In this document: in pieces, positions 17,760 to 50,197 of the stretch
Layout: every line of letters starts with the position of its first letter
Position numbering within the stretch: position 1 is the stretch's first letter
Source of the DNA: a virus
Taxonomy: Duplodnaviria > Caudoviricetes
Reading direction: 5' to 3' (one strand)
IMG/VR virus record: IMGVR_UViG_3300030102_004787
Location: 1-59,211 of that record
DNA length: 59,211 nucleotides
Made by a program: the position numbers and the translations under genes
Notes under the pieces: generated by a model
The model's input: the letters and a program-made list of their open reading frames with translations, nothing else
Database searches by the model: none
Told to the model about the DNA's origin: nothing

Positions 17760-18845
17760 ATGGAAATTAAAGTAAAAGCAGTGGAGGATGTTCCACAAAA
17801 ATCTGTTCAACAAGTGGAAGAAGAATTACTTCAAAAACACGAAGAACAGGTAGAGGGTAAAGTAGAAGAAAAAATAGAAGAGCCAAAAGAAGAGGTTGCA
17901 GTCGAAAATGCTGCTGCTGAATTTGGGGAAAAACAAGTTCTTTCATTTATTAAAGACAGATACGACAAAGAGATTAATTCTTTGAATGACCTTTTTGATC
18001 AAAAGAATAATAATTCGGATTTGCCTGAAGATGTAAAATCTTATTTGGATTACAAAAAAGAAACTGGACGAAGTTATGCAGACTTTATGGCATTGAACAA
18101 AGATTATTCTAAAGAAGATCCAGAAAAGGTTTTATTTAGTTATTATTCTGAGCAAGATCCAGAATTAGATGAAGATGAAATAAAATTTTTACTTGACTCT
18201 AAATTTAAATCTGATGAAAATGTAGACTCAGAATATGATATAAAACAAAAAGGAATTCAAAAGAAAAAAGAGCTTTCAAAAGCATTGAAGTATTTTGAGG
18301 ATCAAAAAAGTAAGTATAAAACTTCTGTTGAGTCAACAGAAGAAACTTCTTTTAAGTCTTCGGAAGACTACAAAGCTTTTCAAGAATACAAGGAGAATAC
18401 AATAAAAAGTTCTGAGCTAACTAAAAAGAGATCAGAAAATTTTAAAAACAAAACAAAAAGTCTTTTCGGAGAAGAGTTTAAAGGTTTTAAGTTCAACATT
18501 GAAGATAAGGATTATGTTTTTACTCCAGGAGATAGAAATGAGTTAATGAAATCTCAATCTGACATTGGTAATTTTTTAAACAAATTTACTAATGATCAAG
18601 GAGAGCTTTCTGACGTGAATGGATATCACCGGTCATTAGCTTTAGCTATGAACCCTGATAAGTTTGCAAAGTTTTTCTATGATGCAGGAAAAAGTGAAGC
18701 ATTGGATAATCAAAACAAAAAAATGAAAAACATTGATTTGAAGATGAGATCTGCTCCAGAAACCACAGTAAAACAAGGGCTCAAAATTAAAGCGGTGACT
18801 CCAACCTCAAGGCGAGGTTTAGTAATAAAGTCAAACCGAAAATAA
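17760..18845 (+). CDS. Putative capsid scaffolding protein
   Basis: Acidic, charged and helical; lies between portal and capsid genes. Confidence 0.65.
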   Translation: MEIKVKAVEDVPQKSVQQVEEELLQKHEEQVEGKVEEKIEEPKEEVAVENAAAEFGEKQVLSFIKDRYDKEINSLNDLFDQKNNNSDLPEDVKSYLDYKKETGRSYADFMALNKDYSKEDPEKVLFSYYSEQDPELDEDEIKFLLDSKFKSDENVDSEYDIKQKGIQKKKELSKALKYFEDQKSKYKTSVESTEETSFKSSEDYKAFQEYKENTIKSSELTKKRSENFKNKTKSLFGEEFKGFKFNIEDKDYVFTPGDRNELMKSQSDIGNFLNKFTNDQGELSDVNGYHRSLALAMNPDKFAKFFYDAGKSEALDNQNKKMKNIDLKMRSAPETTVKQGLKIKAVTPTSRRGLVIKSNRK

Positions 18846-18856
18846 AAACATAAAAA

Positions 18857-20278
18857 ATGAGTTTAAATTTACCTGGCTTTGCGTTACAGCCTAGTGCTAC
18901 TAAAGTACCTAGTGCTACTAACTACTTAGCCAATTTTAATTTCTTAAACCAATATCTTCCTGACACTTATGAAAAAGAGTTTGAAAGATATGGTAATAGA
19001 ACGATAAGCGGTTTCCTTCGAATGACGGGAGCTGAAATGCCTTCTAACTCTGACCTTATTAAATGGGCAGAGCAAGGAAGATTGCATATTAAATATACAG
19101 ACGTATCTACGCCAGCTGCTGCTGCAGATGACACTGCTACTTTTACTGTAGCTGATGCGTTAATTCCTGCAAACCAAGTATTCAATCCTGCTGATGCATC
19201 TGAAATTGCTATTAGAATAGGGAATACTGTTATGATTTCTGGTAACACTGGTTTTGCTGGTATTTCTAACAAAGGTATCGTAACTGCAGTTACTGCTACT
19301 ACTTTCACTGTTAAGTTTTACGAAGGCGGTGGATATACTGGTGTTGGTACTGGAGTTGATGCAAATGAAAAAGTAACTGTTTGGATTTATGGATCTGAAT
19401 TTAAAAAAGGTCAAAATGGGATGTCAGGATCTCTTGAGCCATTTGATACTATTTTAGAAAACAATCCTATTATCTTAAAAGACAATTACGAAGTAAATGG
19501 ATCTGATATGGCACAAATCGGGTGGATCGAAGTATCTACTGAAGATGGTGCTGATGGATACCTTTGGTATTTAAAAGCGGAGCACGAAACACGAATGAGA
19601 TTTGATGATTACTTAGAATCAGCAATGATCGAAGCTGTTCCTGCGCAAGCTGCATCAGGGGCTATTGGAGATTCTTTCAAAGGTTCAGAAGGTCTTTTTC
19701 ACGCTATAGAGCAAAGAGGAAACGTTTTTACTGGAGCTTTAGCTGCATTAGCTGATTTTGACGATATCGTTGAAAGACTAGATAAGCAAGGAGCTATTGA
19801 AGAGAATGTATTGTTCTTAAACAGATCTACTTCTTTTGCAATTGATGATATGTTAGCTGCTCAAAACTCTTATGGTGCAGGTGGTACTTCTTACGGATTA
19901 TTTGATAATGACCAAGAAATGGCACTAAACTTAGGTTTCACTGGATTCCGAAGAGGATATGACTTCTACAAATCAGATTGGAAATATCTTAACGATCCTA
20001 CTATGCGAGGTGGTTTAGTTGGTGGAGCTATTGAAGGTGTATTAGTACCTGCTGGTTCAACTAATGTATACGACCAAGTATTAGGAAGAAACGCTAAGAG
20101 ACCATTCTTACACGTAAGATATAGAGCTTCAGAAACTGAAGACAGAAGATATAAGTCTTGGATAACTGGATCTGCTGGTGGCGCTGCTACTACTGATCAA
20201 GATGTTATGAGAGTTAACTTCTTATCTGAAAGAGCACTTTGTACTATGGGTGCAAATAACTTCTTGTTATTGAAGTAA
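18857..20278 (+). CDS. Major capsid protein
   Basis: 473 aa after the scaffold, strongly biased codon usage, followed by a terminator. Confidence 0.8.
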   Translation: MSLNLPGFALQPSATKVPSATNYLANFNFLNQYLPDTYEKEFERYGNRTISGFLRMTGAEMPSNSDLIKWAEQGRLHIKYTDVSTPAAAADDTATFTVADALIPANQVFNPADASEIAIRIGNTVMISGNTGFAGISNKGIVTAVTATTFTVKFYEGGGYTGVGTGVDANEKVTVWIYGSEFKKGQNGMSGSLEPFDTILENNPIILKDNYEVNGSDMAQIGWIEVSTEDGADGYLWYLKAEHETRMRFDDYLESAMIEAVPAQAASGAIGDSFKGSEGLFHAIEQRGNVFTGALAALADFDDIVERLDKQGAIEENVLFLNRSTSFAIDDMLAAQNSYGAGGTSYGLFDNDQEMALNLGFTGFRRGYDFYKSDWKYLNDPTMRGGLVGGAIEGVLVPAGSTNVYDQVLGRNAKRPFLHVRYRASETEDRRYKSWITGSAGGAATTDQDVMRVNFLSERALCTMGANNFLLLK

Positions 20279-20340: not shown

Positions 20341-21075
20341 ATGAAAAAAGAAATAAAAGACAGAACGTATAGGCTACGTAATAATGTAAAGCCTTTGAGT
20401 TACACTCTTAACTCAAGAAACAGCAGAAGAAAACCCCTTTTACATTTTGATGGAACAACAAGTAGACCACTCAGGTATGCTTCAAATCAAAAGTCACCCT
20501 TTGAAGATGAGCAGGATGCTAATGTGGTTTTAGAACCTGTTGTTTTTGAAGATGGTATGTTGTTTGTACCAAAAAACAACCCTGTATTACAAGAGTTTTT
20601 ATATTATCACCCTGCAAACGGGCAAATATTTGAAGAAATAGATAAAGAAAAAGATGCTCAAGAAGAGGTGCAATATTTAGAATTAGAAGCTAAAGCACAG
20701 AAAGAAGCGGCTGAACTTACTTTTGAAAAAATGGAATCTTTAGCTAGAGTATATTTAAATGTAGATACTAGGATTGCTGCATCTTCTGAAATAAAAAGAG
20801 ATGTACTATTGTTTGCAAGAAACAATCCTGAAGACTTTTTAAACTCACTAGAAGATCCAGATTTAGATTTATTTGATAATATTGATAAAATATTTCAGCA
20901 AGGTTTATTAAAGACCAGGAACAATGACAAAGAGATTTTTTACAATTTAAAATCTAAGAAAACAAAGTTGTGCAGTATTCCATTTGGTGAGACTCCATCT
21001 TCAGTGTTAAGTAGTTTTTTCAAAAAAGAAAATAACGTTGAAATATATGAAGCATTAGTTAAAATGTTAAAATAA
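20341..21075 (+). CDS. Hypothetical protein (head module)
   Basis: 244 aa ORF. Confidence 0.75.
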   Translation: MKKEIKDRTYRLRNNVKPLSYTLNSRNSRRKPLLHFDGTTSRPLRYASNQKSPFEDEQDANVVLEPVVFEDGMLFVPKNNPVLQEFLYYHPANGQIFEEIDKEKDAQEEVQYLELEAKAQKEAAELTFEKMESLARVYLNVDTRIAASSEIKRDVLLFARNNPEDFLNSLEDPDLDLFDNIDKIFQQGLLKTRNNDKEIFYNLKSKKTKLCSIPFGETPSSVLSSFFKKENNVEIYEALVKMLK

Positions 21076-21082
21076 AATTTGT

Positions 21083-21090
21083 TATATTTG
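21083..21090 (+). promoter_or_regulatory. -7 promoter element of the candidate small RNA
   Basis: TATATTTG with no ORF before the terminator 50 nt downstream. Confidence 0.55.
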
Positions 21091-21092
21091 TA

Positions 21093-21170
21093 GTGATTTA
21101 ATTGTTTGTTTTAATCACAACTCTACTTATCCTTACAATCAAGCCCCACTCACTACAGTGGGGTTTTTTT
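21093..21170 (+). ncRNA. Candidate ~78-nt small RNA
   Basis: Promoter motif, then 5' hairpin GTGATT/AATCAC with a TTGTTTGT loop, then an intrinsic terminator. Confidence 0.45.
21141..21170 (+). terminator. Intrinsic terminator
   Basis: AAGCCCCACT-CACTAC-AGTGGGGTT followed by a T run. Confidence 0.85.
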
Positions 21171-21172
21171 AT

Positions 21173-21180
21173 TACCTTTG
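21173..21180 (+). promoter_or_regulatory. Bacteroidota-type -7 promoter element
   Basis: TACCTTTG right after the terminator and before ATG 21212. Confidence 0.6.
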
Positions 21181-21211
21181 TTTTTTATTAACCAACTTAA
21201 TTTTTTAAACA

Positions 21212-21493
21212 ATGCAAAAGTTTTTAAGTATACCTGTAACAAATGAGCAAAACCAGTTGGTTTCTGCTACAGATGTTAAATTAATCGAACAAGCTTCTAC
21301 GACTACAGTAACAATTACTTACGGTGGTGGAAAAGTAACAACTATCACTCACGGTACAGCTCCAGCTGGAAATGAGGAAATGAGAGACAAAATCCAAGAT
21401 GAAGTGGTTGAAGCACTACAGCAAACTTGGAAAAGTGTAATAAAGCAAGTAGCTGATTTACCATACGCAGTATCTGGGATTGCTATATCATAA
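21212..21493 (+). CDS. Small putative structural protein
   Basis: 93 aa; paralog of the next ORF. Confidence 0.75.
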   Translation: MQKFLSIPVTNEQNQLVSATDVKLIEQASTTTVTITYGGGKVTTITHGTAPAGNEEMRDKIQDEVVEALQQTWKSVIKQVADLPYAVSGIAIS

Positions 21494-21497
21494 AATA

Positions 21498-22022
21498 ATG
21501 GAAAAGTTTTTAAACGTACAAGTCCAGGATTTTATAGTTAGCGGAACTTCGATTACTGCAGGAGGAGTTAATTACTTAACTGATAACGGAGGTGAATTTG
21601 CTAATGTAGCTTCTGGTGACATTATTCATCAAACTACAAATAATCAATTTTATCTAGTAGATCAAAAAGTAGATAATAATAACGTTACAATTACTGCAAT
21701 TACCTTATTTGCACCAGCATCTATTGCGTCTGGTAAAGCATATTCAGTATATTCTGCAACAGAGTTTAATCACCAAATGATATCTGTAAGTAATGTAGCT
21801 CTTATTGAACAGGCAGTGGCTAATCAAACAGTTTTAAAATTTGATGATGTTGCAGCCGTAGATACACTAACTATAGTTCATACTGATGTCCCTCTTCTTA
21901 GTGAATACGTTAGGGATTTAGTAGAAGATGAAATGGTAAAAGCTTATCAAACACATTGGAAAGATGTGTTGCATACTATAGACACCACTCCATACTTCGT
22001 TACTAATATTACTATAGCTTAA
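21498..22022 (+). CDS. Paralog of 21212..21493 with an ~80 aa insertion
   Basis: ATG 21498 (MEKFLNV vs MQKFLSI); shared LIEQA, RD..DE.V.A.Q..WK.V and PY.V..I.I. Confidence 0.75.
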   Translation: MEKFLNVQVQDFIVSGTSITAGGVNYLTDNGGEFANVASGDIIHQTTNNQFYLVDQKVDNNNVTITAITLFAPASIASGKAYSVYSATEFNHQMISVSNVALIEQAVANQTVLKFDDVAAVDTLTIVHTDVPLLSEYVRDLVEDEMVKAYQTHWKDVLHTIDTTPYFVTNITIA

Positions 22023-22036
22023 TTTAGTTCAAACAT

Positions 22037-22071
22037 AGAAGAGCGTCTTATCAGATGCTCTTCTTTTTTTT
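22037..22071 (+). terminator. Intrinsic terminator
   Basis: AGAAGAGCGTCT-TATC-AGATGCTCTTCT followed by a T run. Confidence 0.85.
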
Positions 22072-22074
22072 GAT

Positions 22075-22082
22075 TATCTTTG
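22075..22082 (+). promoter_or_regulatory. Bacteroidota-type -7 promoter element
   Basis: TATCTTTG before the tail operon. Confidence 0.65.
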
Positions 22083-22098
22083 TAAAAAAGGTATTTAG

Positions 22099-22824
22099 AT
22101 GATCAATGAAGTAAGAAACACAGTATTATCTATTTTAAATAAAAATAACTACGGATATATTTCACCTTCTGATTTTAACTTGTTTGCTAAACAAGCTCAA
22201 CTAGACATATTCGAACAATATTTTTATGGATATAATAGACAAATTAACCAGCAAAACAATAGGCTAGGAAGGCTTTCTGGAAGTGGTTTAGCTGACCTAA
22301 AAAAGCAATTAGCAGAAGTAATAGATACTTTTACTATGCAAACTACTATTTCTCAAGCAGCTGGTGTTTATCCACTCCCTGATGATTGGTACACATTGTT
22401 AGATTTACTCAGTGGAACTACTATAGTAGAAAGAGTTAATGAGTCGAAAATAAACTTACTAAACTCATCACTATTAACTGCCCCATCTGAAGAGTTTCCA
22501 GCTTACGTATTTCAACCTAGTGTATCGCCATCCACAAACTTATCTAACTCTTTAAGGGTTTATCCTAACACCATTGTAGGAAACTTAATTTTGCAATACA
22601 TTAGATACCCTAAAGACCCAAAATGGACTTTTACTTCTCTTTTATTAGGAGAGCCTATATTTGATCAATCACAACCAGACTACCAAGACTTTGAGTTGCC
22701 TATGTCTGACTATGATGAATTGGTAACTAGAATACTCAAGTACAGCGGCTTATCTATAAGAGAAGCTGCGATTGTTGCAGACGCTAATGCAACTGAAGTA
22801 TTAACTACACAAACTGAAACATAA
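22099..22824 (+). CDS. Putative head-tail adaptor / tail ring protein
   Basis: FNLFAKQAQLDIF, YPLPDDW and YIRYPKDP pattern; position in the tail module. Confidence 0.6.
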   Translation: MINEVRNTVLSILNKNNYGYISPSDFNLFAKQAQLDIFEQYFYGYNRQINQQNNRLGRLSGSGLADLKKQLAEVIDTFTMQTTISQAAGVYPLPDDWYTLLDLLSGTTIVERVNESKINLLNSSLLTAPSEEFPAYVFQPSVSPSTNLSNSLRVYPNTIVGNLILQYIRYPKDPKWTFTSLLLGEPIFDQSQPDYQDFELPMSDYDELVTRILKYSGLSIREAAIVADANATEVLTTQTET

Positions 22825-23756
22825 TGGCTTACATTTCTCAGTATCAATATTATGAAAATAATGGCAATCAACCTCAAAACAAAAACTGGGGTTCTTATCA
22901 GTATGTATCTTTAAAAGATATTGTCAATAATTATTTGTTAATGTACCACGACAATAATAATTTAACAACTAACGAAGAAAGGTACAAGATATTATTTCAC
23001 GCCAAAAGAGCAATACAAGAATTAAATTACGATGCTTTTAAGGAAATTAAAATTTTAGAACTTGAAGTTTGTGATGACACTTTAAGATATATATTACCAT
23101 CTGATTATGTAAATTGGGTGAGAATATCTATTTATCACAACGGAGTTTTATTTCCTTTAACAGAAAATATTCAGACAAATTATGCAGAGGCATATTTACA
23201 AGATAATGATTGTAATATTTTATTTGACCAAAACGGAAATGTCTTGAAACCAAATGATTCTAACATTGATATGGATAGAATTAAAAAAAGAAAAAAGAGT
23301 ATATACCTAAATGAATCTAGTCCTTTTCACGGACAATATGGTTGGTATCTTGAAGAAGCTGGTTGTTGGGCTTTTACTTATGCTTTTGGAAGACGATTTG
23401 GTTTAAATACAGAAACCGCAAATGCTTTACCTACTTTTAGAATAGATAATAAAGGTGGTGTTATTAATTTTAGCAGTGGAGCTGGTGGTAAAACAGTTAT
23501 ACTAGAATATGTTTCTGATGGTATGGAAAATGGAAACAACTCTTCGATAACTGTAAATAAATTGTTTGAAGAATTTATATATGCTTATATTACATATTCA
23601 TTATTAAATTCTAAATTAGGTATTCCTGAATACCAAGTGCAAAGAGCTAGAAGAAACAAAAGTTCTTTACTTAGAAATGCGAAGATTAGAATGAGCAACA
23701 TACATCCAGGTAGGTTGTTAATGAATCTAAGAGGTCAGGATAAAATAATTAAGTAG
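22824..23756 (+). CDS. Putative tail ring / adaptor protein
   Basis: KRAIQELNYD, LPSDYVNWVRIS and ILEYVSDG; position. Confidence 0.6.
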   Translation: MAYISQYQYYENNGNQPQNKNWGSYQYVSLKDIVNNYLLMYHDNNNLTTNEERYKILFHAKRAIQELNYDAFKEIKILELEVCDDTLRYILPSDYVNWVRISIYHNGVLFPLTENIQTNYAEAYLQDNDCNILFDQNGNVLKPNDSNIDMDRIKKRKKSIYLNESSPFHGQYGWYLEEAGCWAFTYAFGRRFGLNTETANALPTFRIDNKGGVINFSSGAGGKTVILEYVSDGMENGNNSSITVNKLFEEFIYAYITYSLLNSKLGIPEYQVQRARRNKSSLLRNAKIRMSNIHPGRLLMNLRGQDKIIK

Positions 23757-37900: not shown

Positions 37901-39109
37901 GAGTGGAGTAAAGGAAAAGGGTCTGCTATATTTACCATAAAAAATCAAGATGGAACATATAGTTATATTGATTTATCACAAATGGATCCTCATCAAAACA
38001 TTGAAAAAATAAGTATGGCATTTACTGAATCAGAAAACATAGCTGATTTTATGATTAAAGTTGTAAGTGAAGGTCTTATAAAGCCTTTTGCATCTGGAGA
38101 TATTGTGGCTCAATGGGCATCTGATTTAGCAACAAATAAAGACTTTTTAATATACAATCCTACTGATCCATTTCAAGTCATATTGAGTGATGTTCTATCT
38201 TATACCAGCAAAAAATTAGCACCTGGTATTTATTCAACTGCTGAAAAATTAATGAAAGATCCAGGGAAAGGCTTGCTTTCTTTCTCAGGAGCTAGGCCCT
38301 ATGATATAGATATACCTAGAGCATTTAATCGTAAGGTTCAGGCATTAAGATACGGAGATATAGAATATTTAATAAAAGATGGGTTAAATGATGCGATCAG
38401 AGATTATGCGAGAGATGCTAAAGTAGATTTAAAATTTTTAGATGAAAATTTTGATCAGCGATCTCAGACTCCTTTAAGTTTGGAAGGGGAAGAAATAGAT
38501 GTAATGTTAGATCCATTAACTAAGTCTATTTTTGGGGGTCTTACTTTGAGTGAATATTATGATAAGCAAAACGAAAGATATAAAGAATACATTAATGAAG
38601 CTCACTTAGATTATAAAGCTGCTATAGAAGTTTATGGTATGGACGAAAAAGATCTTCAAAAGATTATGAAAGATGAAGGTATGAGAGACGAAGAGATACT
38701 TCAAATTATGAATAACACACCCAAGGATATTGAAACTAAATATGGAAAGCTTATAAAAGCTGAAAAGATAGCAAGTCTTAAAAGAAAAATTCAAAAAGAC
38801 AAAGAAAAATTAAAAGCTGGTGGAATGTCTATTCAATCAACGAATAAGTTAAAGGATCAAATTGAGCAGAACGAAAGAAGATTTGATGTGATGACAGGAA
38901 AAACGCAGAAGGAAAACTTAAAAGAAAGACTTTCTCAAAGACCTGATCTTAGAATAAATGAAAACGATTCTCAAGAAGTTAAAGCGGAGAAGAGAAGAAA
39001 GTTAAATGAAGAGATTGAAAAAAGAATGCAGATAGGTTATTCTCAAGAAGGTTTGTATCCAAAGATAAAACAATTTAATGGTGTAGTGGATATGTTACTT
39101 CAGGAATGA
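31958..39109 (+). CDS. Giant (2383 aa) putative ejection protein
   Basis: Acidic helical N-terminal half with Gly/Ala-rich hydrophobic segments; last gene of the virion arm. Confidence 0.6.
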   Translation: MSNQEIYEELKSIGVLKDKTFNKFQEDMKDESYKSKVQDVLGVDLQKKKDSTSISPEESMESTTVENQAPISSESSQTQVTEKVEQQSSEVEQPTEDDDSEPKTPPTSTTEVDDSWKVKYKEITGLNPDEEGVTYEQAKQGFIPNNPTSVKFRGQNFKTGSISWNSQSLGQKLSSRRYAKKYGVEDLFGKNGIYWEKGYNDAKASLELEMPEFEPEKEVVEAEVIDSSTMLDEVEVTTVSLEEATQPTDFEKLDDDSKDLVVSNITTSNPDLDPEKIEVVSVEKYTQETKPVEVADELIDEIDVVSGEQKTKAQKIQELEGEIQKIEEDNKAAEELPANLEDQKKQTLQVNKELKQQKEDQISELKQDVARQETTSEYKAKIIYDGKEMEVNAGTTTTLPEFEVVAPSKETEKVFEKQEEQFQESQYNILADEVASKIGKYSTGEESDLPSKQRVKAKIKEIVSLQDSPYDPPVEILDNEGIGREVITSEEEYSERFINDVFNEYGIEASQDEEIIPGVDRIKLRAVDENGNVTAETTIDLDIARTDLDLDLKPITGGGEGDLAIQILDPEEQRKKIQAERKKLKNFIKENARPKKVETEKDVKLSDPAELNAARKERNELLVELQKVKNATIESMLEAAMEVDELLDILSDEDSTFEEVQQAQEEYSIATKKLSDLRDDIIVKIRVIDELNDLIIESETESYKNIKEFGVPEGDVDYSLWSYSWDIFLNSFKDSIFGTFQAALELLRLPFGGLSKKDREFLRDDFDNLFSGLDADITDLEKAKANYNAGWWQKFGTVLLELLGNAAAALTLGGGSGSVGSVLMKLLPVESAGMVYERTSQRMDEDPIFDKIPEWQKTLLKDSIALVIYFLDKLGLKLSVGQLNRILIRLIEEYSKKASKSSSKGGFIKYVIDQLADPNKVVRLVEKSAIAGSGEGSTEIMQGLGEKALKDLFNLTQDEDVFKPSEVIVGNEDLIAQSMEEGSLGFAAGALLGPLAPGDINALNDEDISRAIITLDKNSNENLIANLKVKIAEGKMTADDASAIINFNEQVQQIVNKYKDLPDLTKDELFELVKKDALLQDLEQQFNQGGTVAQKILGPRIDKLKAEMDAIAENAVKRSEGKQIEEAEITPEPEIVTEPAPEPTEENDIIEARKIASFAISRDNNLTLEELSQVAELMPDLDIDISTDRDIKADELLTKINDYAVQRETADSVQDTREEGPESRPEGEMEVPQQQEEVQDEKQVDEDKPEDEGPDEPQIEVAGVTLEDVKRILGEDPSTEDVFFEGKGIKNKITKIKRHVFSRRKFLPKIWSNLVDQRDNQQAADLFRAEKLLQRYNDKLKKLPKSQQEVINKIGGLYLSGGLPKSFLDGEISRDEAITEVENQIADLNLQLEQTDNESEQRKIKDQINNGIDFLFFLSDMDAALSEEGGQLVPDDVIDIITEMRDMIDDFSKSLISDPDVEISENKAQTIEENLGEYVNRNYQVYNDADWKNKVSEEVKQNAEKFFFDQYMKSFNQQQEMLEIGPEGGTFTDPITGEKVTVKAESKEELENKLRKRAKNKVISILSKEGATQVLTISDSKGILKERKDIPIEIRMLMGEYGDTGSKFVTTVTKQSSVLRNAQMRGRFIKTGLDNGFIFKTEEEALDNSEGDQQYNAKITIGDKTYYTAPSVASAYNQMNNAQKSYDFLINTWLKAASAVKWGKTIGSPATQSVNFLSNTGFAAVNGHLLAPGAGKEARQTSLSELFSFWTDPNTKKEQQEKYARYIELGIVNQNVGLNDIKEFAKRGEEKWLEDQLKTNSSWRQAFQWAGKGAEKLYETGDNFWKIKGFEVEKNRYADALYGKPFEELTEAEKKDVEERAAEIIKNVYPNYSKLPEYVNEKRRSSLGPAFSSFIAFQYESYRTMFETLALAKEEMKNPKLRGVAGRRIAGALSYYAAKQTILGTLASSAGFAIGGLAGTLTGVDDEESEELSKLRDRYLPEWSKGKGSAIFTIKNQDGTYSYIDLSQMDPHQNIEKISMAFTESENIADFMIKVVSEGLIKPFASGDIVAQWASDLATNKDFLIYNPTDPFQVILSDVLSYTSKKLAPGIYSTAEKLMKDPGKGLLSFSGARPYDIDIPRAFNRKVQALRYGDIEYLIKDGLNDAIRDYARDAKVDLKFLDENFDQRSQTPLSLEGEEIDVMLDPLTKSIFGGLTLSEYYDKQNERYKEYINEAHLDYKAAIEVYGMDEKDLQKIMKDEGMRDEEILQIMNNTPKDIETKYGKLIKAEKIASLKRKIQKDKEKLKAGGMSIQSTNKLKDQIEQNERRFDVMTGKTQKENLKERLSQRPDLRINENDSQEVKAEKRRKLNEEIEKRMQIGYSQEGLYPKIKQFNGVVDMLLQE

Positions 39110-39474
39110 AGCTCCATATGACATCTAGAACAAAGTACATCACATTTATCTATCTCATCTTTTAGACGCTGTATAGACATACCACTGTGTACTCCGTTGC
39201 TTACAGCAAACTCTTTATTATCTTCTCTATGATGAAACTCTAAAGCTTTAACACTAAAAGTTGAATGTGTTTCTTTAGAATAACCACATTTCTGACAAGA
39301 TAATTTTTCTTTATAATTTACTAGCCAATCTTTATTTCGATATCGTAAATAGTTTTTAACCTTTCCATAACAAGTTTTGCATTTTCTCCTGTAATGTTTT
39401 TTGCCATTTTTAATTCCTGCGGACCAATAATGATCGTCTGGCAAATTTTTATTACAGGTATTGCAAACCTTCAT
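39100..39474 (-). CDS. HNH endonuclease with Zn-finger N-terminus
   Basis: CxxC pairs, LEFHH, CDVLCSRCHMELH. Confidence 0.8.
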   Translation of the reverse strand: MKVCNTCNKNLPDDHYWSAGIKNGKKHYRRKCKTCYGKVKNYLRYRNKDWLVNYKEKLSCQKCGYSKETHSTFSVKALEFHHREDNKEFAVSNGVHSGMSIQRLKDEIDKCDVLCSRCHMELHS

Positions 39475-39623
39475 TCCTTTATGTCTCTAGCTAATTTAAT
39501 TAACCTATCACAGTGTTTATTAACTTCACCTTGTTGTTGATCCATAAGGTCCTCATAGATCGCATCAGTACAATCGTTGATCTGTTTCATCACGAAGTTA
39601 ACATAGGTTACGTGCTGGTCCAT
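39471..39623 (-). CDS. Hypothetical protein (50 aa)
   Basis: Manual translation MDQHVTYVNFVMKQINDCTDAIYEDLMD...; fills the gap, ATGA overlap. Confidence 0.65.
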   Translation of the reverse strand: MDQHVTYVNFVMKQINDCTDAIYEDLMDQQQGEVNKHCDRLIKLARDIKE

Positions 39624-39624
39624 T

Positions 39625-39867
39625 TTACTTATCCATAGCCTGTAAAAAACTTTCTCCCATTGAATAGTCTATAGATTTGATAGACTTGTAAATATTGCGA
39701 GACTTCTTTTTTACATTCTCCTTGTCTGTTTTGGTAGAGTCTTTACCTAGATGAGCATATAAATTGCAATCAATTCTTAGCATCTCGTCAATCTTTTCTC
39801 GATCAGACCAGCTTGAAAAGTTTATAATTTTTTCTATGTCATCGTAGTTGTATGGCAAATCTCTCAT
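39625..39867 (-). CDS. Hypothetical protein
   Basis: 80 aa, tightly packed. Confidence 0.7.
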   Translation of the reverse strand: MRDLPYNYDDIEKIINFSSWSDREKIDEMLRIDCNLYAHLGKDSTKTDKENVKKKSRNIYKSIKSIDYSMGESFLQAMDK

Positions 39868-40241
39868 TTTTGTAGTTGTAATTTTAATAATTTATTTTCT
39901 TTTATCAAACTTTTTGTTATTCTTTTTAACTCTAAATAAGTTAATTCATCTAAATTTTCTTCATCAACTGTTAATAAATCTAATAAATCTTGATAATTTT
40001 TTTGAACATTAGCATCATATGTCAGTAAATTTTCTATAGTTTTTTTAGAATGTATAACTGTTGCGTGATTTTTATTAATAATATTTCCTATTTCTTGATA
40101 GGTTAAATTTTTTAAAGTGTCTTTGGTTATTTTTATAAAAAAAGCTCTTGCCTCTATGTACTTTGCTTTTCTGCATTTTTCCTCAAGATTGAGACCGTAT
40201 AACTCTTCTATCGTTTGTTTTATTATATTTAATTGATTCAT
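39864..40241 (-). CDS. DnaA C-terminal (domain IV)-like HTH protein
   Basis: R...EAR...LTYQEIGNIINKNHATVIHS resembles the DnaA signature SL..IG..F.RDHTTV.HA. Confidence 0.75.
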   Translation of the reverse strand: MNQLNIIKQTIEELYGLNLEEKCRKAKYIEARAFFIKITKDTLKNLTYQEIGNIINKNHATVIHSKKTIENLLTYDANVQKNYQDLLDLLTVDEENLDELTYLELKRITKSLIKENKLLKLQLQK

Positions 40242-40614
40242 TTAAGTATTTTTTTTTGTTTATTAAATCTAAGTACCTATCGCAATCTACTTCTTTGATA
40301 TCTATTAACGCTACTAACGGTTGTTTTTCAGTAAATAATGTTTCTACTTCTAGCTCAAAGAACGTAGGTATTTTTTGTGTATGTACTACACCACCATAAT
40401 TTTCAACTGTATATAAATCTTCTTGTAATGCAATTTTTAAATCATCGTGACCATCAATTATTTTATGATTTGGTTTTATTTGGTGAACAGTCTGGTTTAT
40501 TAGTTCAGCTATCTTTAAAGAAACATCAAGATCAAAATCAGTCTGTAGCTTATTCATAAAGTAGTCTTCTACTTCATAAATCATCTCCTCTGTATACTTC
40601 TGTTTTAAATCCAT
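40183..40614 (-). CDS. Hypothetical protein
   Basis: 143 aa ORF in the replication operon. Confidence 0.6.
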   Translation of the reverse strand: MDLKQKYTEEMIYEVEDYFMNKLQTDFDLDVSLKIAELINQTVHQIKPNHKIIDGHDDLKIALQEDLYTVENYGGVVHTQKIPTFFELEVETLFTEKQPLVALIDIKEVDCDRYLDLINKKKYLNESIKYNKTNDRRVIRSQS

Positions 40615-40822
40615 AACTTTTTAGTTCTTTAATTCTATACTTCTGCAAACCTGACAAATCTTTCCCTGGTCTTTTTATTTCAGAGAATAAAACGTCAGCT
40701 CCTTTTGGAATAGCAAGTAAGTCAGGTATTCCGTTCTTGTTAGTTAATTTTAATTTAATTACGTAATAGCCTTGCTCCTCTAGTTCTTTGATTCTTTTGC
40801 CTTGAATTTTAGACTCGCTCAT
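40574..40822 (-). CDS. VRR-NUC family endonuclease
   Basis: ESKIQ...GIPDLL...FSEIKRPG..LSGLQ. Confidence 0.85.
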   Translation of the reverse strand: MSESKIQGKRIKELEEQGYYVIKLKLTNKNGIPDLLAIPKGADVLFSEIKRPGKDLSGLQKYRIKELKSYGFKTEVYRGDDL

Positions 40823-40832
40823 CAAAACAAAG

Positions 40833-40991
40833 TTATGAAATTTGTAAGAATCTTTTTCTTATTTCAGCCCCTAAATCAGCATCGTTTGGATACATTTTAC
40901 ACAACTCTTTGATAGACAGTTTCTTAGCTTTTGGATTACTGTACTCACAGTCTTTTGTCTGTCGATACTCGTTGAGTGTTCTTTTTTTCAT
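40833..40991 (-). CDS. Hypothetical protein (52 aa)
   Basis: Manual translation MKKRTLNEYRQ...YPNDADLGAEIRK. Confidence 0.6.
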   Translation of the reverse strand: MKKRTLNEYRQTKDCEYSNPKAKKLSIKELCKMYPNDADLGAEIRKRFLQIS

Positions 40992-41386
40992 TCAAAGTGC
41001 CTCCCTTCTTCTTTTGTTAGTTCATAAAAATATTTTTCTACAAAAACATTGTTTGCAAACTCTGTTCTATATGGACATTTTATTTTTTGTATTGGCTTTT
41101 TTAACAAATTTTCTTTCAAATCAAATAAATCGTACACGTAGATACCATCTGGATCGCTAACCACATAAAAGGGTCTTTTATTATTTGCTTCTCCTACCAT
41201 TAAGAGCTGAAAGCATTTGTCTACCTGTAAGAATTTAGTCTCGTATGCTTTATCTCTTATCTTTATCTCTAGGATAGAGTTGTCGTTATATGCATCATAC
41301 ACATCAAAATCATCTTCAGATGGTACTAAATACTTGTTGAATCTTTTGTTAAGGTTCTCTATAAATTTGATCTCCTTCTCTTTCAT
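40988..41386 (-). CDS. PD-(D/E)XK-like nuclease
   Basis: FDVYDA...ILEIKIR motif. Confidence 0.6.
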   Translation of the reverse strand: MKEKEIKFIENLNKRFNKYLVPSEDDFDVYDAYNDNSILEIKIRDKAYETKFLQVDKCFQLLMVGEANNKRPFYVVSDPDGIYVYDLFDLKENLLKKPIQKIKCPYRTEFANNVFVEKYFYELTKEEGRHFE

Positions 41387-41497
41387 TGATTAGTTCTTTT
41401 ATTAAATAACTTACAAGCCACTCATAATCAGGATGTTTTTTAGTTGCTAATAGTTTAAACGATATCTTATCAGCTATTTTTCTTACATCTTTCATAA

Positions 41498-42733
41498 TTA
41501 CAAACTTAATAAATCTCTTTTAAAGTGTCTGAGGGTGTAATCCTTTTTGTTGGATACCGCTTTGTATATTCTAGGTTCAATACCTTTTTTAGTGAATATC
41601 CAATACACCTTATTATTTAATCTGGTCTTTGTGGTCATACGATCACGACTCTGCCAATAGCTTGTCGCACTAAAATCTATGTTGTAGTACACAATGTAGT
41701 CTGCTTTACGAAGGGATATACCTTCCCTTCCGCTTACGATCTGTAAAGCTATAACCTTCCCTTTATCACTATCATCAAATGATGGTAAATCTGTTACCAG
41801 CTGATCACCAAATACTTTTTTAAGTGCATCAAGTTCTGCCTTGAACTTATAAAATATTCCTATCTTCTTATCCTTAAATGTACGTTTTATATACTCTGCT
41901 TTACTTGTATCAAGCACTGTAGTATTTCCACTTTCAAACTTAACCGTACCACTGTACATCTGGTGTAACTTAGACATTAATTTTACAGGTGTGTCTGCCA
42001 ATATTAATTCACCATCCATCTCAATAGCTCTCTCTCTTTTTAACTCCTCGCACATAGCATATACATACGGATCTATATCTACATTTAAAAAACGTTCCTT
42101 AATCTCAGATTGAAAGCCTGCTTCCTTCTGTGTGTATGATATGGTATAAGGTTGCATTAAGTGTTTTATACTTTCCCTTCCTTTGCTGTAATCCGTAACT
42201 CTGAATCCGTTGATCATCTTCTCTATCTTATTTACGTGATCATCCGCAAATCGATAGAAGTTCCTATACTTACTAAAAGGATTAAGTGGACATCCATATA
42301 CCTGGTGATACATCTGAGAGAAACTCTCTGGTGTAGGAGTCCCAGATAAAAATATAACATAAGGATTTGATACATCTATAATCTCTTTTACTTGTTTTGC
42401 TCTTTTACTTGGCTTGGGAAAAGCTCCCAATGAATGTGCTTCATCACATATAATCATATCCCATTTAATATCTGGTAGCTTATGTAATGATTCATAGTTT
42501 ATGCACCAAAAATTCCAGCACTCATTTAACTTCACCTCATCATCAGATATAGATGAAATAGCTTTCTTTTTTGTTATAAACAATATATTATCAACTTTTA
42601 ATTGTTGACAAACGGCTAGACTAGTAAATGTCTTGCCCGTTCTTACTTCCATAGCTAGATACACAAACTTGTAATGTTTTAATATATCTGTTGCTTTTTT
42701 ACTTATTTCTTTTTGATATGTTCTTAATTCCAT
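41498..42733 (-). CDS. SF2 (SNF2-like) helicase
   Basis: LRTYQ, RTGKT, DEAH, LSGTP, GREGISL, QSRDR. Confidence 0.88.
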   Translation of the reverse strand: MELRTYQKEISKKATDILKHYKFVYLAMEVRTGKTFTSLAVCQQLKVDNILFITKKKAISSISDDEVKLNECWNFWCINYESLHKLPDIKWDMIICDEAHSLGAFPKPSKRAKQVKEIIDVSNPYVIFLSGTPTPESFSQMYHQVYGCPLNPFSKYRNFYRFADDHVNKIEKMINGFRVTDYSKGRESIKHLMQPYTISYTQKEAGFQSEIKERFLNVDIDPYVYAMCEELKRERAIEMDGELILADTPVKLMSKLHQMYSGTVKFESGNTTVLDTSKAEYIKRTFKDKKIGIFYKFKAELDALKKVFGDQLVTDLPSFDDSDKGKVIALQIVSGREGISLRKADYIVYYNIDFSATSYWQSRDRMTTKTRLNNKVYWIFTKKGIEPRIYKAVSNKKDYTLRHFKRDLLSL

Positions 42734-42980
42734 TTCTCAATATTTTATCCAAATTAGCACACCTCTCATAATCCTCCTCCATCTCAAAGTGATGAAGTAA
42801 GAATAACAATTCAAACTTACTTAAAGGAGTGGTTGGATCGTGTGCGAATATTACATCTAAATTTATAAACTTAATCTCAAGATCTTCTAAATAATCTTCC
42901 AGGGTTTTACCTGACATAATAATATTATAAGAATTTACAAAAGCTTGATTTACTCTTTTATTATCGTCTATCTTTTTCAT
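42699..42980 (-). CDS. Hypothetical protein with UvrB/C-like C-terminal motif
   Basis: EEDYERCANL. Confidence 0.6.
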   Translation of the reverse strand: MKKIDDNKRVNQAFVNSYNIIMSGKTLEDYLEDLEIKFINLDVIFAHDPTTPLSKFELLFLLHHFEMEEDYERCANLDKILRNGIKNISKRNK

Positions 42981-45475
42981 TAAAATGGTGGTTCTATTAT
43001 TGAATCTTCAGATCCAAATATTTCATTTTTAATTTCCGGTTGTTCTATTACTGGTTCTTCAAAAGGTATTTGTTTTACCTCTTCTTTACTGTGTTTATTT
43101 ACAATCTTAATCCACCTTCCCTTTGCACCATCTTTCCCCTCATCAGGATTCACTCCTGTTTTATACACAGCGTATGCTTTTAACCATCTATAAAACTCTG
43201 TCCTAGAAACCGTCCTTTTAGCCTTTGGGGCAAAGTCTGGGTTGTCTGCTATAAAGTCAAAGTACAAGTCCTGTTTGTATACTCTATCTCCATTCTCAAA
43301 CTCTTCATTAGGAATGTTTCCATCAATTAAGCCTAACCATTCTATAAACTCGTGACAAGTCTTTTGTGCTAGCTTTTTAATTTTAAGATTAACAAACTTA
43401 CTTTTTATCAGACCGTTATTCATATACAATTGCAAACAGTAAATCATATAGTTGTCAAACTGACACCACTCCGATTTATCCCAATCTCCAAATAATAATT
43501 TACCGAACTCATCAAGTGGTGTGTATTTAGCATTGTAATGTTGGGCTAGTTCTAGCTCCCACTTTCTTCTTTCAAAAGAATTACCATCTCCTTTGATAGC
43601 GTAGTTAGTAGTAATAGAAACCTTTGGTGATTTATCAAATGGTATTTTGATTGCGTCTTTATTTTTTTTCTCTAAAGTCAATCCTTCTGTAATCACACTA
43701 AATAACCTCTCAAAATTAAAGTTCTTTCTCACATCATCAAAGCAAAGTAGTTGCGTGTCTGCGGATACTAACTGATAAGGGAATGATCTTTCAAAGTGAA
43801 ACGACTTCCCATCAATGACCACCAGCTTTTTCATATGCTGTAATGCATTCATAAATATACCTTTACCTGTACCACCTTCGGGATCATTACTCAATACTTC
43901 ATCATATAGTATAACAGCTGGACAATAGGATAGATTTTTGTATCCGTGCATCAAATAACCTATTGTACTTTCCATAGACAATATTCTTTCCTTATCTTCT
44001 GCAGATATATTGGATATAAACTTTTGATAGTCGCAATCATAATAATCGCAGAAAGCAAACTTCCGTGGTATAACGTGCTCTTTCCACACAAAGCCACCTA
44101 GATCTATATAATCTATTGATTCTATCTTATTAAGAGTTATCTTAACTGCGCAATTAGTGTAATATAAATAGGAAGCATTTTTAGTGTCCTCCATAAAAAG
44201 TACATCCACAGATGTGAGTAGAGTTAAAAACTCCTCCCTAAAGTACTTTGTATTCTCAGCGAAATAATTATATACATCTACATCGTTTACTTCCATTAAG
44301 TAATTAAGCACATAATCTTTTATTTCTTTTTCTGTTGTGTTATCAATCAAATTGTTTTTTACCCTGACGAATACATAACTAGTACTGCCCTGTGGATTGT
44401 ACTTATAAAAACCTGCCTCCTCTAAAAAGTTTTTAAACTTTAAATGAAATATCTTTATGACTCCCTTTGATGATCTAGTCCAGAAGTCAGCATTACTATT
44501 CTCTAAACTAATCTTATTGACTACCTCTTTTATTTTTTCTTCTTCGTAATCTTCTTTTAGTTCCTGCACAATAGAGTCTTTACTTCTGCCTTGTATTATC
44601 TTAGACTTGATCTCAGATATCTTTTGAGTATCTTCATATGACTTAGTGCCGAAGTTAGCTACCTGTGAATAAGCTGAGTCAATGGTTTGTTTTATTTCTT
44701 TAGCTGTAAATGTAGATGACTCATATCTTTTAATTACAAACTCAGCTAAAGACTTGCTTATACCAAAGTCATTAAAAGCTGCAGCCAATATGTACACATT
44801 GTTATTGCGTTGTCCCTCTTGCATAGGGTATTTCTTTTCCCACCATCCACTAAGCATTTCAACTAATTTACTTTCATCAGTGATTGGTATAGATACTTCA
44901 GAAGTCTTTACTTCAACCGGAGTTATTCTTTCTAATTTATCTACCCATAGTCTTGAGTTTTCGTTTATATAAATATCAGGATCATAACTTTCGTAACATA
45001 CCCTGGATAAGTTCTTGCAAGTCAAATCAAAGTGAGTTGAATTAAAATGCTCATCCAATGCTTCAAAGAAAAATACGTGTGAATCTATTTCATTTGGTAT
45101 CTTAACCAATACCTTCAAACCTCTGCCTGATGGTGAGATGAAACAACTATACACATATTCATCTTTGCAAATATCTTTTTTAAACTTGTGTAGTTCTTTG
45201 TCACTTGCAAACTCATCAAAGTCCAAGCATATTAAACCACTGTGCTCTTGAATAGATGCATCGTTTCTTTTGGTGAACACCCCACTAAAGCAAATAGCAG
45301 GTAGTTGTTTCTTTAGTTCGTTAATCTTATTTTTTTGTTTTAGTGATCTAATCTTTTCGATTAAATCTTTTGACTTACCATTCTGTATTCTTTGTAAAGC
45401 CACCTCTACACCTCTGTGAAAGGGTTGACTTGTCTCTTTTATATTTTTAAATAATGTTATATACCTCTTATCCAT
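42980..45475 (-). CDS. Primase-helicase (VirE-N/BT4734-like primase domain, PriCT, SF3-like helicase)
   Basis: KKQLPAICFSG, SGLICLDFD, FISPSGRGLK, SYDPD, GQRNN, GGTGKG, FDDV, ITTNY. Confidence 0.85.
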   Translation of the reverse strand: MDKRYITLFKNIKETSQPFHRGVEVALQRIQNGKSKDLIEKIRSLKQKNKINELKKQLPAICFSGVFTKRNDASIQEHSGLICLDFDEFASDKELHKFKKDICKDEYVYSCFISPSGRGLKVLVKIPNEIDSHVFFFEALDEHFNSTHFDLTCKNLSRVCYESYDPDIYINENSRLWVDKLERITPVEVKTSEVSIPITDESKLVEMLSGWWEKKYPMQEGQRNNNVYILAAAFNDFGISKSLAEFVIKRYESSTFTAKEIKQTIDSAYSQVANFGTKSYEDTQKISEIKSKIIQGRSKDSIVQELKEDYEEEKIKEVVNKISLENSNADFWTRSSKGVIKIFHLKFKNFLEEAGFYKYNPQGSTSYVFVRVKNNLIDNTTEKEIKDYVLNYLMEVNDVDVYNYFAENTKYFREEFLTLLTSVDVLFMEDTKNASYLYYTNCAVKITLNKIESIDYIDLGGFVWKEHVIPRKFAFCDYYDCDYQKFISNISAEDKERILSMESTIGYLMHGYKNLSYCPAVILYDEVLSNDPEGGTGKGIFMNALQHMKKLVVIDGKSFHFERSFPYQLVSADTQLLCFDDVRKNFNFERLFSVITEGLTLEKKNKDAIKIPFDKSPKVSITTNYAIKGDGNSFERRKWELELAQHYNAKYTPLDEFGKLLFGDWDKSEWCQFDNYMIYCLQLYMNNGLIKSKFVNLKIKKLAQKTCHEFIEWLGLIDGNIPNEEFENGDRVYKQDLYFDFIADNPDFAPKAKRTVSRTEFYRWLKAYAVYKTGVNPDEGKDGAKGRWIKIVNKHSKEEVKQIPFEEPVIEQPEIKNEIFGSEDSIIEPPF

Positions 45476-45505
45476 ACTTAATTTAATTTAATTGTTTGTG
45501 CCGAA

Positions 45506-45600
45506 ATGACGATTTTTTATAAAAATCTAGCGTAAATATATAAAATACATTCATTTATATACTTTTTATTTTTTTTATTTTTTTTAAAAAAAAACGTCCC
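45506..45600 (-). repeat. 95-bp AT-rich element A bounded by inverted GACGWTT boxes
   Basis: Same length, same terminal boxes and same internal A-tract-GTATATA as 52651-52745, in the opposite orientation. Confidence 0.7.
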
Positions 45601-45685
45601 ATATATATATAAATATGTTGTAAATAATTATGTATGTTAATACAATTACACCAAACACTGTAAATATTTCTATTGCTTGTAACAT
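45584..45685 (-). CDS. Possible 33-aa membrane peptide
   Basis: MLQAIEIFTVFGVIVLTYIIIYNIFIYIWDVFF; A-rich leader. Confidence 0.35.
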   Translation of the reverse strand: MLQAIEIFTVFGVIVLTYIIIYNIFIYIWDVFF

Positions 45686-45700
45686 AGTTGTTTATAAATT

Positions 45701-45741
45701 AAAAAGGGGGTGCGGCACTCAAAACTTTACCCAACACCCCC
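45701..45741 (-). terminator. Probable terminator after the putative SSB gene
   Basis: Minus strand GGGGGTG...CACCCCC followed by TTTTT; long loop. Confidence 0.55.
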
Positions 45742-45789
45742 ACAGAATAAAACGCAATCCTCTTTTGGATATACGTCATATTCATATTG

Positions 45790-46023
45790 TTAGAAATTTA
45801 CTTCTTCAGTTTTCTTTGGTTCATAAGTATCCAACTCGCAATAGTAATTACCACCTTTTGCTTGTTTGATATCTAAATTTACCCAACCATTCTTAGCGTG
45901 TGAAGTTAAGAATGCTACCGCCTCATCAACCTTGATGGACTGTCTCCCTACTACAAATTCAGGAGCCGTTTCGCTTCTCTTGAAAGAGAAACCAGATGCA
46001 AATACTTTTTCTTTTGTCATCAT
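45790..46023 (-). CDS. Putative single-stranded DNA-binding protein
   Basis: Small beta-rich aromatic protein with an acidic tail ending in Phe (EEVNF); follows ERF and exonuclease. Confidence 0.5.
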   Translation of the reverse strand: MMTKEKVFASGFSFKRSETAPEFVVGRQSIKVDEAVAFLTSHAKNGWVNLDIKQAKGGNYYCELDTYEPKKTEEVNF

Positions 46024-46038
46024 TATTTGTTTTTAATT

Positions 46039-46085
46039 TACTCACAACTTATCTATACATAATCCAGGGTGTGAGTATACCTGGA
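46039..46085 (-). promoter_or_regulatory. Predicted H-type RNA pseudoknot in the leader of the putative SSB gene
   Basis: S1 UCCAGG/CCUGGA and S2 UACUCACA/UGUGAGUA, both perfectly paired and interleaved. Confidence 0.65.
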
Positions 46086-46086
46086 A

Positions 46087-46821
46087 TTAATTTAGTAATT
46101 CATCGAAGTAGAAATCATCAATAGATATCTCAGCATCTTCAGAAAAGAACTGACGATAGATATTAACTGCTCTTTCTACTTTTCTTTCTCCGCTTTCTAA
46201 GAACGCTTCTGTAGGTTTATATATGCCCAGTAGCATACTAGTCTTATCAATAGCGTAGAAGTGTACAGGAACTCCAAATATCTGCTGATATATGTATGCC
46301 TGACTATCATAGTTATATTTCTTTGCTGATAAATGAAATTTGGATATATCTGATGTGGTTTTTAGATCTATAATCTTATCCTCGCATAGTATATCTGCTT
46401 TACCTTTCCACTGCTCTCCTTTTAAGAAAGTAACTCCAGGTACTTCATATTTGTTTCCATTAGCATATATATCATCAAAGAATTTAAAGTTAGCTTTCAT
46501 TACACCACATAAACTATTTAAGTGGTCCACTTCGTGTTTTAAAATTAAAATGTTTTCATCATAGTCGTGAAGATCTTTTTTATATTCTGTGCTATTACGA
46601 GACCTTGCACCACTAATTTTAAACGCATCTATCTTATCTGGCTCTAGCATATAGGTGTGAAAATATCTTCCTTCTATAAGTGGTTTTGTTTCTACTGTCT
46701 GCTGTCTGAACGCCCTAGGATTATTCAATAGAGTGTATATGTCTGAGTTCGATAAGAATTTCCTACCGAACTCTCCATAATAATCTTTGTCATTCTCAAG
46801 ACGTTTTAATATCGCCTCCAT
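46087..46821 (-). CDS. RecE/exonuclease VIII-like PD-(D/E)XK nuclease
   Basis: LSNSDI, GRYFHTYMLEP, KGKADIL..IIDLKTT, YDSQAYIY. Confidence 0.85.
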   Translation of the reverse strand: MEAILKRLENDKDYYGEFGRKFLSNSDIYTLLNNPRAFRQQTVETKPLIEGRYFHTYMLEPDKIDAFKISGARSRNSTEYKKDLHDYDENILILKHEVDHLNSLCGVMKANFKFFDDIYANGNKYEVPGVTFLKGEQWKGKADILCEDKIIDLKTTSDISKFHLSAKKYNYDSQAYIYQQIFGVPVHFYAIDKTSMLLGIYKPTEAFLESGERKVERAVNIYRQFFSEDAEISIDDFYFDELLN

Positions 46822-47381: not shown

Positions 47382-47405
47382 TGTTTATTTATTTATTGTT
47401 TATTT
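47378..47405. repeat. 28-bp perfect direct repeat, copy 1
   Basis: TCATTGTTTATTTATTTATTGTTTATTT, also at 47637-47664. Confidence 0.9.
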
Positions 47406-47640: not shown

Positions 47641-47664
47641 TGTTTATTTATTTATTGTTTATTT
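47637..47664. repeat. 28-bp perfect direct repeat, copy 2
   Basis: Identical to 47378-47405. Confidence 0.9.
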
Positions 47665-50157: not shown

Positions 50158-50197
50158 AATTATTTGTTTTTTGTTTGTTTATTGTTTGTTTGTTATA

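Follow-up and report, generated by a model that had tools for sequence, protein, structure and literature searches.

Phage-encoded small RNAs have been described chiefly in phages of enterobacteria and vibrios. In lambda, 6S RNA is the short transcript that runs from PR' to tR', and with Q antitermination PR' also serves the late operon; in Stx phages the short PR'-tR' transcript, StxS, reportedly acts in trans. The c4 RNA of P1 and P7 and the CI RNA of P4 are trans-acting immunity antisense RNAs of temperate elements, processed from the operon that they control and equipped with structured loops, and lambda OOP and P22 sar are cis-antisense phage RNAs, transcribed opposite their target and fully complementary to it. 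To our knowledge, the phylum Bacteroidota does without both Shine-Dalgarno (SD)-led initiation and Hfq. A search of the literature returned no description of a small RNA (sRNA) in a phage of this phylum, and its chromosomal sRNAs include Rfp18 of Flavobacterium psychrophilum (PMC9723704).

Here we describe a discrete cassette of ~90 nt, consisting of a promoter box (TATATTTG, hereafter P1), 45 non-coding nucleotides and an intrinsic terminator, which lies between the stop codon of one gene and the promoter box (P2) of the next, a gene of 93 aa. It would represent an orphan transcription unit inserted into the structural module of one sub-lineage of marine Flavobacteriaceae podophages. Promoter, short leader and terminator follow one another just ahead of late genes, as in the lambda PR'-6S-tR' layout, and with StxS and lambda 6S the cassette shares a late-region promoter, a strong intrinsic terminator some tens of nucleotides further on and a short, predicted non-coding RNA. 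Unlike them, it has an ancestral second promoter past the terminator and no detected member of the Q family, belongs to a different host phylum, and has the phage's own early mRNAs as its proposed targets. The proposed product resembles the c4 and CI RNAs in being a small phage RNA that would pair with short repeated sites in early and replication leaders, whereas its own promoter and terminator, its single-stranded 5' seed and its imperfect, low-complexity sites set it apart from them. Like OOP and sar, it would be a phage RNA of ~70-80 nt with its own promoter and terminator that lowers the expression of regulatory or early genes, but it is encoded 24-30 kb from its proposed targets. Finally, the cassette has in common with the chromosomal sRNAs of Bacteroidota (such as Rfp18, PMC9723704, and the Bacteroides thetaiotaomicron sRNAs, PMC10994844) a sigma-A TAnnTTTG promoter, an intrinsic terminator, the lack of an ORF, predicted mRNA pairing and an SD-less phylum; unlike those, it is phage-borne, has no Rfam match and, by a strict pattern, no copy in 185,579 species genomes. 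By analogy, the cassette may work like the known phage riboregulators, but without Rfam membership or covariation.

That the stretch is a small-RNA gene is plausible; an independent small transcription unit is supported in silico, and regulation of early genes by the candidate RNA is putative. The most likely product would be a non-coding RNA of ~76 nt, for which transcription from a host-type promoter would start at about 21095 and run through ~45 unstructured nucleotides into the intrinsic terminator, with the ancestral promoter of the 93-aa gene beyond it. The conserved 5' end of the RNA, rich in U and G (GAUUUAAUUGUUUGUUUUAAUCAC), could serve as a seed for the A/C-rich, SD-less start regions of minus-strand early and replication genes, namely the phrog_1617 gene, the primase-helicase gene and several small ORFs (Table 1), and pairing would lower the translation of early genes once the structural module is active. 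To this reading, a ~76-nt RNA whose conserved 5' end pairs with CA-rich early-gene start regions, we give a probability of roughly 0.35. We infer that P1 fires, that the RNA accumulates and pairs, and that pairing represses; the 'late' timing of the unit is suggested by its place in the structural module only. Contigs of two metatranscriptome runs contained exact pieces of the phage only in capsid-region genes (18525-18689 and 19331-19496) and did not cover 20556-23207. If the RNA is real, it would provide a compact and testable case of post-transcriptional control in an SD-less phylum and show that regulatory RNAs can pass from one phage promoter to another as self-contained cassettes; otherwise the locus amounts to a terminator/promoter junction of the ordinary kind.

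Genomic setting

The window, by which we mean the whole stretch of DNA that was analysed, is the 59,211-bp IMG/VR virus record IMGVR_UViG_3300030102_004787 (positions 1-59,211). The DNA runs that contain this phage are labelled as marine metagenomes, and its capsid-like protein is 63.5% identical to that of an uncultured podovirus and 47-52% identical to those of Flavobacterium 'elemo' phages, Cellulophaga phages and Maribacter phage Panino. Gene leaders are A-rich and without SD sequences, and many genes are preceded by TAnnTTTG boxes; both traits fit a Bacteroidota host. Plus-strand (structural) genes occupy 1-39109 and minus-strand genes 39100-52106, the latter block encoding a primase-helicase, an SNF2-type helicase, ERF, a PDDEXK nuclease and many small ORFs. 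The record carries an exact 98-bp direct repeat at its two ends (1-98 and 59113-59210), which is either a terminal repeat or an overlap left by the assembly of a genome that is circular or permuted, and a GroEL/Cpn60-family chaperonin is encoded on the plus strand at 52827-54431 (Pfam PF00118, E = 2.5e-60).

Anatomy of the cassette

An earlier, model-made reading of the letters (the first-pass annotation) had described a TAnnTTTG box at 21083, an intrinsic terminator, a separate box for the next gene at 21173 and no ORF, all of which the present analysis bears out (Table 1): no ORF of at least 30 aa lies between 21076 and 21211 on either strand. The TATATTTGTA form of the promoter box also stands ahead of the gene at 58865 and ahead of genes of relatives, and on reading the sequence no -33 element is evident upstream of P1. 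Terminator-like sites number five in 2.5 kb against 0.9 expected, and this is the sole intergenic region of the genome in which two TAnnTTTG boxes flank a terminator. Within the conserved 5' region, the core AATTGTTTGTTT (21100-21111) is invariant across variants. A small peptide translated from a 29-codon TTG frame, which crosses the terminator, was considered and rejected because the frame is not conserved: a 1-nt insertion in six of the nine variants shifts it.

Table 1. Features of the cassette, its neighbouring genes and the proposed target sites (window coordinates)
Feature	Position	Strand	Remarks
Upstream gene	20341-21075	+	244 aa, phrog_34748; follows the major capsid-like gene (18857-20278)
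P1, sigma-A type -7 box TATATTTG	21083-21090	+	invariant in 9/9 cassette variants
Inverted repeat	21093-21118	+	GTGATT (21093-21098) and AATCAC (21113-21118), with TTGTTTGT (21102-21109) between the arms
Predicted transcription start	21095	+	box end + 5; G in 7/9 variants, A in the two of L006/L007 type
Conserved 5' region, putative seed	21095-21118	+	contains the 16-mer 21096-21111
Variable spacer	21119-21140	+	50-59% identity to relatives; only ACTTATCC-like letters recur
Intrinsic terminator	21141-21170	+	stem-loop 21141-21166, 10-bp stem, 6-nt loop, U7 (T7 at 21164-21170)
P2, TACCTTTG	21173-21180	+	3 nt past the U-run; promoter of the 93-aa gene
Downstream gene	21212-21493	+	93 aa, no family match; its homologues anchor the locus comparison
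Primase-helicase leader (gene 42980-45475)	45486-45499	-	14 nt complementary, -24..-11
Leader of ORF 49816-49956	49959-49969	-	11 nt complementary, -13..-3
Leader of ORF 49969-50157	50181-50191	-	11 nt complementary, -34..-24
Start region of gene 50313-51038 (phrog_1617)	51037-51052	-	16 nt complementary to 21096-21111; covers -14..+2

Relatives and insertion

The 93-aa gene has 116 relatives in viral contigs, and the comparison was made on 80 of the 116 that were listed. Six of these 80 loci hold the cassette. In the other 74 a single TAnnTTTG box lies within 60 nt of the ATG, the upstream stop codon being followed by this one box and a short leader (TTATTAACC...ATG), and P2 has the same position and leader as that single box. 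P2 is thus the ancestral promoter and the cassette an insertion of ~90 nt. The late genes behind lambda PR' depend on read-through from it; here no such dependence was found, since P2 is the sole promoter in 74 of the 80 listed loci. When loci reached from the 93-aa gene, from the upstream gene and from pattern scans are pooled, the cassette is present in 11 viral contigs and five metagenome contigs, which together with the window amount to nine distinct variants in two sub-clades. In one type (L044) it is bracketed by direct repeats (TTATATTTGTA), and the seed of this type differs next to the core (...GAUUACAAUUG...).

Beyond this group of phages, the strict pattern met chance matches only: one in the viral contigs besides the 11 with the cassette; three in the metagenome contigs, all in coding DNA, among eight matches of which five came from the same phage group; and one in an alphaproteobacterial MAG among the 185,579 species genomes. 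A blastn search of the phage collection gave no record matching the cassette stretch, its two matches being an uncultured phage without the 93-aa gene or the cassette and, in another part of the query, 253 nt of Maribacter phage Panino. When a covariance model built from the nine variants was run over 429 kb of window and relatives, it recovered the three copies already known and no others. No copy in a host or in any other sequence context was therefore found in the contigs, species genomes, viral contigs or relatives. Rfam likewise gave no match at gathering score over the whole window, and the local matches were all below threshold and at chance level, the best being Yfr10 (20.9 bits; threshold 43). 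Two further leads were tried and rejected. DNA-run ends at 21072 and 21107 had hinted at promoter and seed in another context, and a scan of viral contigs with a shortened pattern gave only the same seven contigs; an origin of the cassette as an inverted copy of an early leader would not fit, the identity ending at 16 nt on both sides.

The junction itself is variable. Two loci (L005 and L128) have the window's cassette and P2 followed by another downstream gene, whose product starts MNKYCKITLDG..., with the recombination breakpoint inside the leader just past P2, and two others (L019 and L020) carry at this junction a lipoprotein-like gene that is unrelated. These exchanges mark the site as a recombination hot spot, and with it comes a rival to the early-gene sRNA that is doubtful in itself and yet nearly as likely. 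On this view the capsid operon would end in the stretch, which supplies its 3' UTR and terminator and retains a relic promoter; a terminator-plus-promoter punctuation module would have recombined into the leader of the 93-aa gene and duplicated its box. Any short RNA would then be a by-product, and the complementarity a matter of T/G-rich low complexity set against A/C-rich leaders. A terminator followed by a TAnnTTTG box is the usual punctuation of this phage (20288-20316; 22037-22064 with a box at 22075), and flanking direct repeats of the L044 type are what recombination between promoters would be expected to leave.

Conservation, predicted start site and fold

What a recombined junction leaves unexplained is the pattern of conservation. 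Across the nine variants, 21 of 26 alignment columns are invariant in the 5' region against four of 22 in the spacer (Fisher p = 2.8e-5). The window is 100% identical to L009 over 21083-21118, 59% over the spacer and 91% over the terminator, compared with 75% over the surrounding 6.7 kb; the corresponding identities to L006 are 94%, 50% and 88%, with 84% overall. Near-invariance of the first ~24 transcribed nucleotides beside a freely varying spacer is not accounted for by a by-product RNA, nor is it clear why a relic promoter should keep P1, its two free positions included, invariant in all nine variants while the free positions of P2 vary. Nine of nine variants retain the paired terminator; where a base of the stem changes, it does so on one side and leaves a wobble or G-C pair. 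The conservation of promoter, loop and terminator in relatives, which the first-pass annotation had put forward as a check, was found for all three elements among the cassette variants, with the spacer free; covariation, whether within the hairpin or between seed and targets, was not.

In Flavobacterium psychrophilum the sigma-A box is placed at -12..-5 (PMC9723704), and on this geometry the predicted start falls at 21095. The same placement agrees with 12 of the 74 cassette-less listed loci (L055, L057, L061 and others), in which a TAnnTTTG box begins exactly 12 nt upstream of the start codon of the 93-aa homologue; mRNAs in those phages would accordingly be leaderless. A start at 21095 lies within the 5' arm of the inverted repeat, so that at most 4 bp of the hairpin are possible in the RNA, and the two stem positions that vary, 21093 and 21095, are -2 and +1 relative to it. 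The hairpin (21093-21118) has no compensatory pair, and a pair is broken in three of the nine variants. When variants were folded from 21095, the 5' region was unpaired in the centroid fold of three of four, and all four formed a strong terminator (z = -3.5 to -4.1). Since the start would lie inside the arm and the hairpin does not covary, the RNA is better read, on these models, as a single-stranded 5' seed followed by a terminator than as a hairpin presenting a loop. The inverted repeat around TTGTTTGT that had been taken for such a hairpin does exist in the DNA; its folding in the RNA is what the start site and the variants speak against.

Complementarity to early start regions

The 16-mer ATTTAATTGTTTGTTT occurs exactly at 21096-21111 and again at 51037-51052, over the start codon of the minus-strand gene 50313-51038; 'Gp88-like' is the label that the first-pass annotation gave this gene, and its family match is phrog_1617. 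This recurrence, the 14-nt match in the primase-helicase leader and the presence of TTGTTTGT upstream of other early genes (51891; 50171, 50182 and 50186, within 50171-50192; 49959; 48643) had all been pointed out before and hold on re-examination. Over the window, TTGTTTGT has 17 matches against 5.8 expected, a number reached by none of 100 shuffles; 14 of the 17 are on the plus strand and 12 fall within 45.4-51.9 kb. Allowing up to two mismatches, the 16-mer has four matches against 0.6 expected. A repeat of 16 nt is not rare as such and proves little alone, given 20 maximal exact repeats of at least 16 nt in the genome, ~7 of which are isolated AT-rich pairs of 16-17 nt, a number that suits a recombined junction.

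The seed was compared, by Watson-Crick pairing, with 75 start regions (-35..+15), with dinucleotide shuffles as the control. Its longest match to any of them is 16 nt (equalled by two of 1000 shuffles), and six start regions have a match of at least 10 nt (11 of 1000); the 18 start regions with a match of at least 8 nt are not a significant excess (136 of 1000). Matches of at least 8 nt fall in 13 of 28 minus-strand start regions compared with five of 47 on the plus strand. Duplex energies, calculated from the 26-nt seed as the full-length RNA gave artefactual long-loop duplexes involving the terminator, tell a similar story: the best duplex, at -15.9 against -13.0±1.7 kcal/mol in shuffles, is marginal (16 of 300 shuffles), the mean of the top five is reached by four of 300, and the mean over early start regions is -8.8 compared with -6.9 kcal/mol (three of 300), with no excess over shuffles on late start regions. 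On composition-matched shuffles, then, the longest match, the count at 10 nt and the early mean energy stand out, and the count at 8 nt does not. The complementarity to start regions exceeds shuffles by a modest margin, ~0.2-5% of them matching it.

Natural sequence is a harsher background. A 16-nt match is reached by 259 of 118,334 natural 45-nt windows, and six start regions at 10 nt or more by 1.1% of them, which ranks the cassette stretch in the top 0.2-1% for complementarity. Some 80 regions of the genome have complementary matches of at least 10 nt to five or more start regions; many are T-rich terminator tails or antisense to paralogous leaders, and their number favours the view of the complementarity as a by-product of composition in a recombined junction. 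The seed itself is of low complexity, (UUUG)n plus a palindromic AAUU, and the 12-mer read backwards matches the window as often as the 12-mer itself (nine against eight), which is what a (CAAA)n repeat would be expected to do. The caution that had been attached to the sRNA proposal, namely that its sequence is low-complexity and AT-rich, was well placed.

Recurrence in related genomes

The excess of complementary start regions recurs in the two other cassette-bearing genomes compared. Start regions with a match of at least 10 nt number six in the window, five in G002 and six in G003 (reached by nine, three and six of 400 shuffles, respectively), whereas the cassette-less genomes G012, G011, G009 and G008 have two, one, one and two, none of them significant; the excess is thus seen in three of three cassette-bearing genomes and in none of four without the cassette. 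Among the genomes compared, ACAAACAA is ~3-fold enriched only in the same three. These three form one clade, so that the co-occurrence of cassette and CA-rich leaders counts as about one event.

Individual sites are less constant. The 16-mer site of the phrog_1617 gene persists in G003, where the sequence upstream of it differs, and is absent from G002, one of the two cassette-bearing relatives with a known early region, in which a similar word stands ahead of another gene. In both G002 and G003 the primase leader has a mismatch (ACTAACAATT...) with no compensating change in the seed, and no seed-target covariation was found in these two genomes, the seed being invariant. The missing site in G002, the uncompensated primase mismatch and the backwards control together leave no evidence for seed-target co-evolution, and the loss of the top target in G002 is what would be expected of a recombined junction. 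The first-pass proposal of a trans-acting sRNA that shuts off early and replication translation therefore stands in part: the unit, its conserved seed and a complementarity above shuffles speak for it, and the absent top target and the uncompensated mismatch against it. A more far-reaching version appears to us unlikely, in which a mobile promoter-seed-terminator riboregulator would switch off the whole class of early and replication genes through a shared CA-rich start-region motif that replaces the SD sequence, as a global early-to-late translational switch, with leaders and cassette having co-evolved in one lineage.

Poor conservation of the phage target sites would also be compatible with a real small RNA directed elsewhere, either at host mRNAs with SD-less, A-rich start regions or at an RNA-binding protein that it titrates, and the features that support the unit as such serve this reading as well as they do the early-gene sRNA. 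Bacteroidetes mRNAs are naturally without SD sequences, and mRNA structure and the nucleotides nearby tune their initiation (PMC6847099), so the start regions of many host genes could suit a U/G-rich seed. The excess of complementary sites at start codons is, however, specific to the genomes of cassette-bearing phages, which points to phage targets; targets elsewhere seem unlikely.

Least probable by a good distance is that the conserved block acts on DNA or transcription, as an operator spanning +1..+24 of P1, whose regulator would recognise the same words in the early region, or as a leader with antiterminator loading at P1 in the manner of lambda PR'-tR': the block does abut the promoter and include an inverted repeat, its word lies in one DNA orientation at 45486, 48723 and 51037, and a promoter, short leader and strong terminator ahead of late genes do recall PR'/6S/tR', but the repeat is broken in three of nine variants, the early-region copies keep fixed distances from start codons and not from promoters, the ancestral P2 past the terminator makes read-through unnecessary, and a six-frame search of the genome gave no match to either Q-family antiterminator profile (PF06530 and PF03589), unrelated types of antiterminator being outside these profiles.

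Other features of the early region

Several further elements of the minus-strand block and its border deserve mention in their own right. The divergent region 52107-52826 is free of genes over 720 nt and contains, at 52300-52420, a GCGTGTGCGTAGCGT-like purine/pyrimidine repeat run (reading the minus strand) flanked by A/T tracts, which may be an origin or a regulatory region. Words of the form AATCGTCA(C/T) occur in the same non-coding region (52650-52745) and directly upstream of the primase-helicase gene (45505-45520); in the cassette-less relatives G011 and G012 they stand in tandem (aatcgtcacaaaatcgtcacaaatATG) upstream of the primase gene, and they look like iterons. A tandem duplication at 48518-48776, with a period of ~128-140 nt and exact repeats of 37, 26 and 50 nt, doubles one small ORF together with its leader. 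Just after the phrog_1617 gene, on the minus strand at 50201-50301, lies a tRNA-like element whose acceptor stem pairs perfectly over 7 bp and which has a GGTTCGAATCC T-arm and ends in CCA; its middle is aberrant and over-long (101 nt in all), it scores 27.9 bits with the Rfam tRNA model against a threshold of 29, and ARAGORN makes no call. Lastly, TACCAACGA occurs exactly twice on the minus strand, at 51065-51073 and 51917-51925, each copy directly 3' of a near-consensus box (TATCTTTA and TATACTTG) and ~25-45 nt upstream of an early ORF, and it is a candidate motif for early promoters or start sites, set apart from the promoters of the structural module.
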